The notes beneath the pieces were generated by a model that worked only from the letters and a program-made list of their open reading frames with translations, was not told the DNA's origin and did no database searches. A stretch of 64,000 bases of DNA from Escherichia coli. GTDB lineage: Bacteria; Pseudomonadota; Gammaproteobacteria; Enterobacterales; Enterobacteriaceae. The DNA lies in assembly GCF_003790525.1 (NCBI RefSeq), contig NZ_CP033635.1. The stretch is one strand, 5' to 3'. A program made the translations under genes and the position numbers. Of the stretch, positions 53,604 to 53,763 are shown piece after piece (positions within the stretch are counted from its first letter, which is position 1; every line of letters starts with the position of its first letter).

Positions 53604-53763
53604 GGGTTATTCCTTATCTATCTAATAACGTTGAGTTTTCTGGAACCTGTCCCATTGAACTCTCGCCGGAAAGCTCAATAAGACAGGTTCTACGTTTAGT
53701 TGCCGCGCTTTTATATGCGCTTGATTTACAACATCTTCTGGATAATTTTTACCAGAAAAATCA

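Follow-up and report, generated by a model that had tools for sequence, protein, structure and literature searches.

The RNase III sites of Escherichia coli at rnc, pnp, metY-nusA-infB and sdhB-sucA are long stem-loops located in a leader or between two cistrons, and their cleavage alters the stability of the downstream message. The pdhR-aceE intergenic region behaves in the same way. Gordon, Cameron and Pfleger (2017, mBio; PMC5371410) compared wild type and an rnc deletion mutant by RNA-seq, and intergenic pdhR-aceE 122961 is their top-scoring new RNase III site (Table 1). The cleavage was verified there with purified RNase III in vitro and by 5′ RACE, and the proximal box is matched at all but one position. 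Cleavage destabilises the aceEF-lpd mRNA, the half-life of aceEF rising from about 3 min in the wild type to about 5 min in the rnc mutant. The mutant also had higher pyruvate dehydrogenase activity, in early stationary phase only. The published effect on half-life is modest. An rnc-dependent primer-extension stop in the aceE leader has also been published. The small RNA GlnZ pairs at C-99, just 5′ of the stem, as shown with a compensatory C-99G mutation, and the rnc14 mutant has raised AceE levels (Miyakoshi et al. 2022, PMC9731577). RNase III and GlnZ also target the sucA leader, but the RNase III cut lies upstream of the GlnZ site in sucA and downstream of it in aceE, and rnc14 shifts SucA and AceE in opposite ways (PMC9731577).

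The inverted repeat analyzed here lies at the same locus and belongs to the same hairpin as the site of Gordon et al., and we found no difference of substance from the site that they describe (PMC5371410). The present analysis adds cross-species covariation, a strand test, a link to the Rfam family tp2 and the description of ERIC-like inserts at the hairpin apex. Structure, strand, uniqueness in the window, conservation and covariation were computed here, whereas cleavage, half-life, enzyme activity and GlnZ pairing are taken from the literature.

A 22-bp hairpin between pdhR and aceE

The window is a stretch of 64,000 nucleotides of E. coli DNA, which we mapped onto the MG1655 chromosome (window position = 176620 - MG1655 coordinate). 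A single base differed between window and MG1655 over the 401 nt compared. The names pdhR and aceE are those of the RefSeq annotation in 5,423 E. coli genomes and in MG1655. The features of the locus are as follows.

53764-54528, minus strand: pdhR coding sequence, the upstream cistron (RefSeq annotation)
50940-53603, minus strand: aceE coding sequence, the downstream cistron, with the Shine-Dalgarno sequence AAGGA at 53611-53615
53643-53690, minus strand: 22-bp RNA hairpin with a CGGC tetraloop, RNase III substrate (from the fold, covariation in 73 species and published cleavage)
53669-53690, minus strand: hairpin 5′ arm, GAACCUGUCUUAUUGAGCUUUC when read as mRNA, beginning with the 9 nt of the right-hand repeat of the first-pass annotation
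53665-53668, minus strand: apical tetraloop CGGC, a variable apex that carries inserts of 2 to 183 nt in other genera
53643-53664, minus strand: hairpin 3′ arm, GAGAGUUCAAUGGGACAGGUUC, ending in the 9 nt of the left-hand repeat of the first-pass annotation

The first-pass annotation had reported the 9-mers gaacctgtc (53643-53651) and gacaggttc (53682-53690) on the plus strand, 30 nt apart, in a 160-bp leader between the two genes. Their placement is exact, and the spacer from the pdhR stop (53764) to the aceE ATG (53603) does measure 160 bp. Since perfect 9-bp inverted repeats with a loop of at most 30 nt are expected by chance about 6 times per shuffled 64-kb window, the 9-bp repeat alone proves nothing. 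The structure proposed at that stage, a 9-bp stem closing a 30-nt loop, was wrong, as the intervening 30 nt pair too and leave a 22-bp stem with a 4-nt loop. The repeat finder gave arms of 22 nt, separated by 4 nt, with a DNA complementarity of 82%. The four non-complementary arm positions each place a T opposite a G on the minus strand. The stem of the mRNA is therefore uninterrupted, with pairing at all 22 positions (18 Watson-Crick and 4 G·U pairs).

RNA structure prediction on the minus-strand transcript, the check suggested together with the repeat, returned this 22-bp hairpin at -32.7 kcal/mol (z = -9.84), and none of 200 shuffled sequences was equally stable. The hairpin was also the dominant element when the whole spacer was folded. 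When both strands were scanned for uninterrupted stems of at least 18 bp with loops of 3-10 nt, just one was detected in the 64-kb window, and on the minus strand only. The full 22-bp structure is far beyond chance. The 9-bp repeat forms only its basal third, and the hairpin sits in the pdhR-aceEF-lpd mRNA between the stop codon of pdhR and the ribosome-binding site of aceE. On the transcribed strand its 22 consecutive pairs exceed the stem of at least 20 bp (about two helical turns) that we used to define an RNase III hairpin.

A strong hairpin between two cistrons might also act as a terminator or attenuator limiting read-through from pdhR into aceE, the first of two functions offered by the first-pass annotation, and a "possible terminator sequence at the end of pdhR" appears in the older literature (PMC2759082). 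However, the stem is followed by CAGAAAACUC, without a U-tract, a scan of 53560-53860 for intrinsic terminators gave 0 sites on both strands, and the operon is described as a single pdhR-aceEF-lpd mRNA (PMC2759082). An intrinsic (Rho-independent) terminator was rejected on the basis of the tail and of the empty scan. The read-through option is thus left without support, and we consider a terminator or attenuator very improbable.

Two further pairings were observed in the distal part of the spacer. A hairpin UUUCUGG-N10-CCAGAAG occupies 53735-53758 on the minus strand, directly after the pdhR stop. It shows compensatory variation in Escherichia, Citrobacter, Salmonella, Kluyvera and Kosakonia and is absent from the short-spacer genera (about 121-145 nt) Enterobacter, Lelliottia and Yokenella; it may be what the older papers had in mind as a terminator at the end of pdhR. 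A 12-nt complementarity (92%) of 53632-53643 with 53752-53763 brackets the whole spacer and competes with this pdhR-proximal hairpin. The corresponding long-range pairing was rejected: it appears in the MFE structure and not in the centroid, and its 5′ partner is missing from short-spacer species.

Conservation, covariation and the strand under selection

Homologous loci were collected with PdhR as query, retaining one genome per species, which gave 80 loci in total, from Enterobacteriaceae-type species and from Serratia oryzae. One of them (L042) is titled "Chryseobacterium sp. 18061" and yet carries an enterobacterial pdhR-aceE locus with 93% PdhR identity; this assembly is probably mislabelled or contaminated. 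The spacer could be delimited in 73 of the 80 loci, and 7 had no usable spacer. The loci dropped were either truncated (L005, L050, L052 and L059, counted as three or four; L059 ends 8 nt past the aceE ATG) or had no anchor match (L020, L034, L041 and L046). The hairpin is visible in L034 and L059 as well.

The hairpin was retained in all 73 delimited spacers. Its lower 14 pairs, with U·G at pairs 10 and 11, are invariant within Enterobacteriaceae, whereas the upper 8 pairs vary freely yet remain paired. Among the 36 distinct 48-nt versions, 98.4% of cells held standard pairs, and compensatory double changes were found at 6 pairs (47 cells). The observed covariation score was reached by none of 500 shuffles, in a test that takes no account of phylogeny. 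As a control, sliding the partner by 1-3 columns reduced pairing to 37-49%. The same structure was predicted independently by RNAalifold. Serratia oryzae shows compensatory changes in the lower stem as well, GAACC/GGUUC becoming GAGCC/GGCUC (A-U to G-C), and has U-A in place of the U·G pairs. The structure is thus selectively maintained in relatives, in 73 of 73 species. Missing conservation or covariation had been named as the observation that would speak against an RNA structure, and the hairpin proved conserved throughout and strongly covarying. Within Enterobacteriaceae the invariant lower 14 bp are uninformative on pairing, and a different constraint, such as a DNA element or a protein site, might account for them. 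We infer that the invariant lower stem reflects recognition by RNase III.

Being long, nearly perfect and invariant in its outer part, the palindrome could be read as a DNA operator for a dimeric regulator. Against this, the imperfections follow a non-random pattern, all of them being T·G on one strand and thus G·U in RNA, the inner half changes by compensatory pairs, and central inserts of up to 183 nt are tolerated. Moreover, the PdhR box AATTGGTAAGACCAATT was found upstream of pdhR and is absent from the pdhR-aceE spacer, so that a PdhR-box operator in the spacer was rejected. An operator appears scarcely credible.

Which strand carries the selected structure was addressed through the wobble pairs, an A·C on one strand being a G·U on the other. 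On the mRNA strand, G·U and A·C cells numbered 105 versus 8 in the 36 distinct sequences, and still 34 versus 8 when the two invariant U·G columns were left out. Of the 73 species, 69 had a more stable fold in the mRNA sense than in antisense. In the window, the same stem read on the plus strand contains four A·C mismatches and reaches -20.4 kcal/mol. The G·U asymmetry and the stability of the sense fold both point to selection acting on the minus-strand RNA, that is, on the mRNA.

This result bears on the one Rfam family that scored above threshold in the region.

53606-53719, plus strand: match to Rfam RF02030 "tp2", full length, 103.4 bits versus a gathering score of 50, opposite the mRNA

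The only other match retrieved by the Rfam scan of the region, to a snoRNA (17 bits, E = 1), is noise. The Rfam aceE RNA motif, a Pseudomonas-type structured leader upstream of aceE, is unrelated and gave no match at an E-value of at most 10 in the same scan. The central helix of the tp2 model (model positions 37-85) is the pdhR-aceE hairpin, and a weaker minus-strand match (29.5 bits) is the palindrome read from the other side. The hairpin might accordingly be part of an independent sRNA, Tp2, transcribed from the plus strand antisense to the spacer. In addition to the full-length match, this reading can draw on the listing of Tp2 as an E. coli sRNA from the pdhR-aceE spacer, with citation of Rivas et al. 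2001 (PMC9426594). The family is modelled on the plus strand, whereas the mismatched and weaker plus-strand stem, the weaker antisense fold in 69 of 73 species and the G·U asymmetry described above all point to the minus strand. In addition, neither a sigma-70-like promoter nor an intrinsic terminator was detected on either strand of 53560-53860, and the current MG1655 RefSeq annotation has no tp2 gene at the pdhR-aceE spacer. The delta-tp2 phenotype was traced to polar loss of aceEF expression, and Tp2 supplied in trans did not complement it; Tp2 comes from the same DNA as the hairpin, and an independent function was not demonstrated (PMC9426594). Short sense-strand RNAs from the aceE leader are detectable and could be the original observation. 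Two publications that list Tp2 leave its strand unstated. An independent antisense Tp2 seems quite improbable to us, and, as judged from the covariance model and the pairing data, RF02030 is probably the hairpin of the mRNA, together with the conserved sequence on either side of it, seen in mirror image. As the structure is on the mRNA strand, caution is advised with Rfam tp2 and with deletion phenotypes ascribed to "Tp2".

RNase III cleavage and the 5′ end at -48

Three published features can be placed on or next to the hairpin.

53659, minus strand: RNase III site from RNA-seq, MG1655 122961, inside the 3′ arm (PMC5371410, Table 1; coordinate mapping checked)
53651, minus strand: 5′ end mapped at -48 from the aceE ATG and published as the "aceEP1-P2" start, a G pairing with the ninth base of the 5′ arm (PMC2759082)
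53695-53710, minus strand: invariant GCGCGGCAACUAAAC stretch, approximate GlnZ pairing site with C-99 at 53702 (PMC9731577); the outer limits were set by us

Processing was the second function suggested by the first-pass annotation, and here it was correct, an RNase III site having been demonstrated experimentally before at 122961, which corresponds to window position 53659 (PMC5371410). The hairpin is very probably the RNase III processing site of the pdhR-aceEF-lpd mRNA, at which cleavage shortens the lifetime of aceEF-lpd. In a helix of 22 bp, RNase III is known to cut in the middle of the stem, and its processing hairpins typically receive staggered cuts about one helical turn from the loop, with 3′ overhangs of 2 nt. 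The uninterrupted 22-bp duplex would be the substrate of this double-strand-specific enzyme, with both arms being cut, and the cuts would separate the pdhR part of the transcript from the aceEF-lpd part. The aceE message would then begin at about -48, within what had been the stem, with a 5′ monophosphate and the sequence GACAGGUUC; this is one of the two 9-mers originally reported, which thus forms the 5′ end of the processed aceE mRNA if that end is -48. The likely cuts are staggered by 2 nt, one following position 11 of the 5′ arm and the other position 39 of the hairpin. The processed aceEF-lpd RNA would then decay faster, lowering pyruvate dehydrogenase, and GlnZ, pairing directly upstream of the stem, may modulate the RNase III step.

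Additional elements flank the stem on both sides. A small hairpin, GCGC-N8-GCGC, is located at 53705-53720 (minus strand), just upstream of the invariant GCGGCAACUAAAC of the GlnZ site; its GCGC stems are kept in other genera, where loop length and sequence differ. On the other side, the part of the leader between the stem and the aceE ATG (53604-53642, minus strand, CAGANAANUCAACG..UUAGAUAGAUAAGGAAUA) is near-invariant across the family, a conservation that exceeds what would be expected from the Shine-Dalgarno requirement alone.

The end at -48 was obtained by 5′ RACE (Olvera et al. 2009) and falls within 1 nt of the -48/-49 start of Spencer and Guest 1985 (PMC2759082). It lies 9 bp above the base of the stem and 13 pairs below the loop, beside the two conserved U·G pairs, and this mid-stem location fits the position expected for an RNase III cut. 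The RNA-seq coordinate (53659) is 8 nt away from it.

The same end has been taken for a transcription start, and Gordon et al. point out that the annotated aceE promoter lies within the hairpin (PMC5371410). The region could then be the DNA of an internal promoter, aceEp, starting at -48, with an incidental palindrome. The mapping of the -48/-49 end on two occasions, in 1985 and 2009, and its listing as aceEP1-P2 (PMC2759082) agree with such a promoter, as does the sequence invariance of the lower stem. Yet a consensus scan of both strands of 53560-53860 for sigma-70 -35 and -10 hexamers with 16-18 nt spacing gave 0 sites upstream of the -48 start and no sigma-70-like promoter elsewhere in that interval. 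The published start has a poor sigma-70 score, 1.90, and is among the few promoters without confirmation by a second method (PMC2759082). The would-be -10 region is the upper 3′ arm, which covaries so as to keep pairing and not sequence, and in 16 species inserts of 73-183 nt split the would-be -35 region from the start and leave the RNA stem unharmed. Finally, the 5′ end of the RNase III product is the mapped "TSS" (PMC5371410). The idea that the -48 end is a processing product was raised and not adopted by Gordon et al., who kept open a coexisting true promoter (PMC5371410).

The missing consensus, the poor score, the covarying -10 region and the insertions together favour the -48 end being a processing product. 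A promoter with an incidental palindrome appears unlikely, and a weak promoter coexisting with processing at -48 is possible.

Apex insertions and the meaning of the hairpin

The apex of the hairpin has repeatedly received additional sequence in relatives. In 15 species the apex carries an element of about 122 nt, complete or truncated, the carriers including Raoultella, Phytobacter, Klebsiella indica, Kosakonia sp., Franconibacter and others (L011, L030, L043, L051, L054, L055, L065-L068, L071, L077, L079 and L080, plus the truncated locus L050), and a different insert of 183 nt in one more (L018). The insertion point corresponds to window positions 53665-53668, and the copy in L071 is truncated. 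In all these cases the lower stem is intact, and the helix is extended by the insert. The centre of the 122-nt element is presumably ERIC-like: the primer sequences ERIC1R and ERIC2 match it at adjacent positions, with 4-8 mismatches of 22. The 65-nt hairpin of K. pneumoniae (L063) resembles a deletion remnant of the same element. L018 (Intestinirhabdus alba) has a spacer of about 600 nt, with further extra sequence upstream of its insert of about 183 nt; this insert did not match the ERIC-like primers, and the lower stem is intact there too.

These observations can be combined into one reading, in which Tp2 (RF02030) is a wrong-strand image of the stem and its flanks, the -48 "aceE promoter" start is an RNase III end, and the apex is a tolerated landing site for ERIC-like elements, which give relatives in Klebsiella, Raoultella, Phytobacter, Kosakonia and Franconibacter a longer RNase III substrate. 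Whether all three parts hold at once is, in our estimation, evenly balanced.

The hairpin is real and conserved, and both the element and its mechanism are already published. The points that remain are the probable wrong-strand Rfam family, the ambiguity between promoter and processing, the annotated aceE promoter start coinciding with the middle of an RNase III substrate, and the ERIC-like inserts at the apex; no new question is opened. For the cell, the hairpin gives a regulator, pdhR, and the abundant enzymes of aceEF-lpd, which are encoded on one transcript, differing RNA lifetimes at the pyruvate node, a role shown in 2017 (PMC5371410) and extended in 2022 with GlnZ (PMC9731577).
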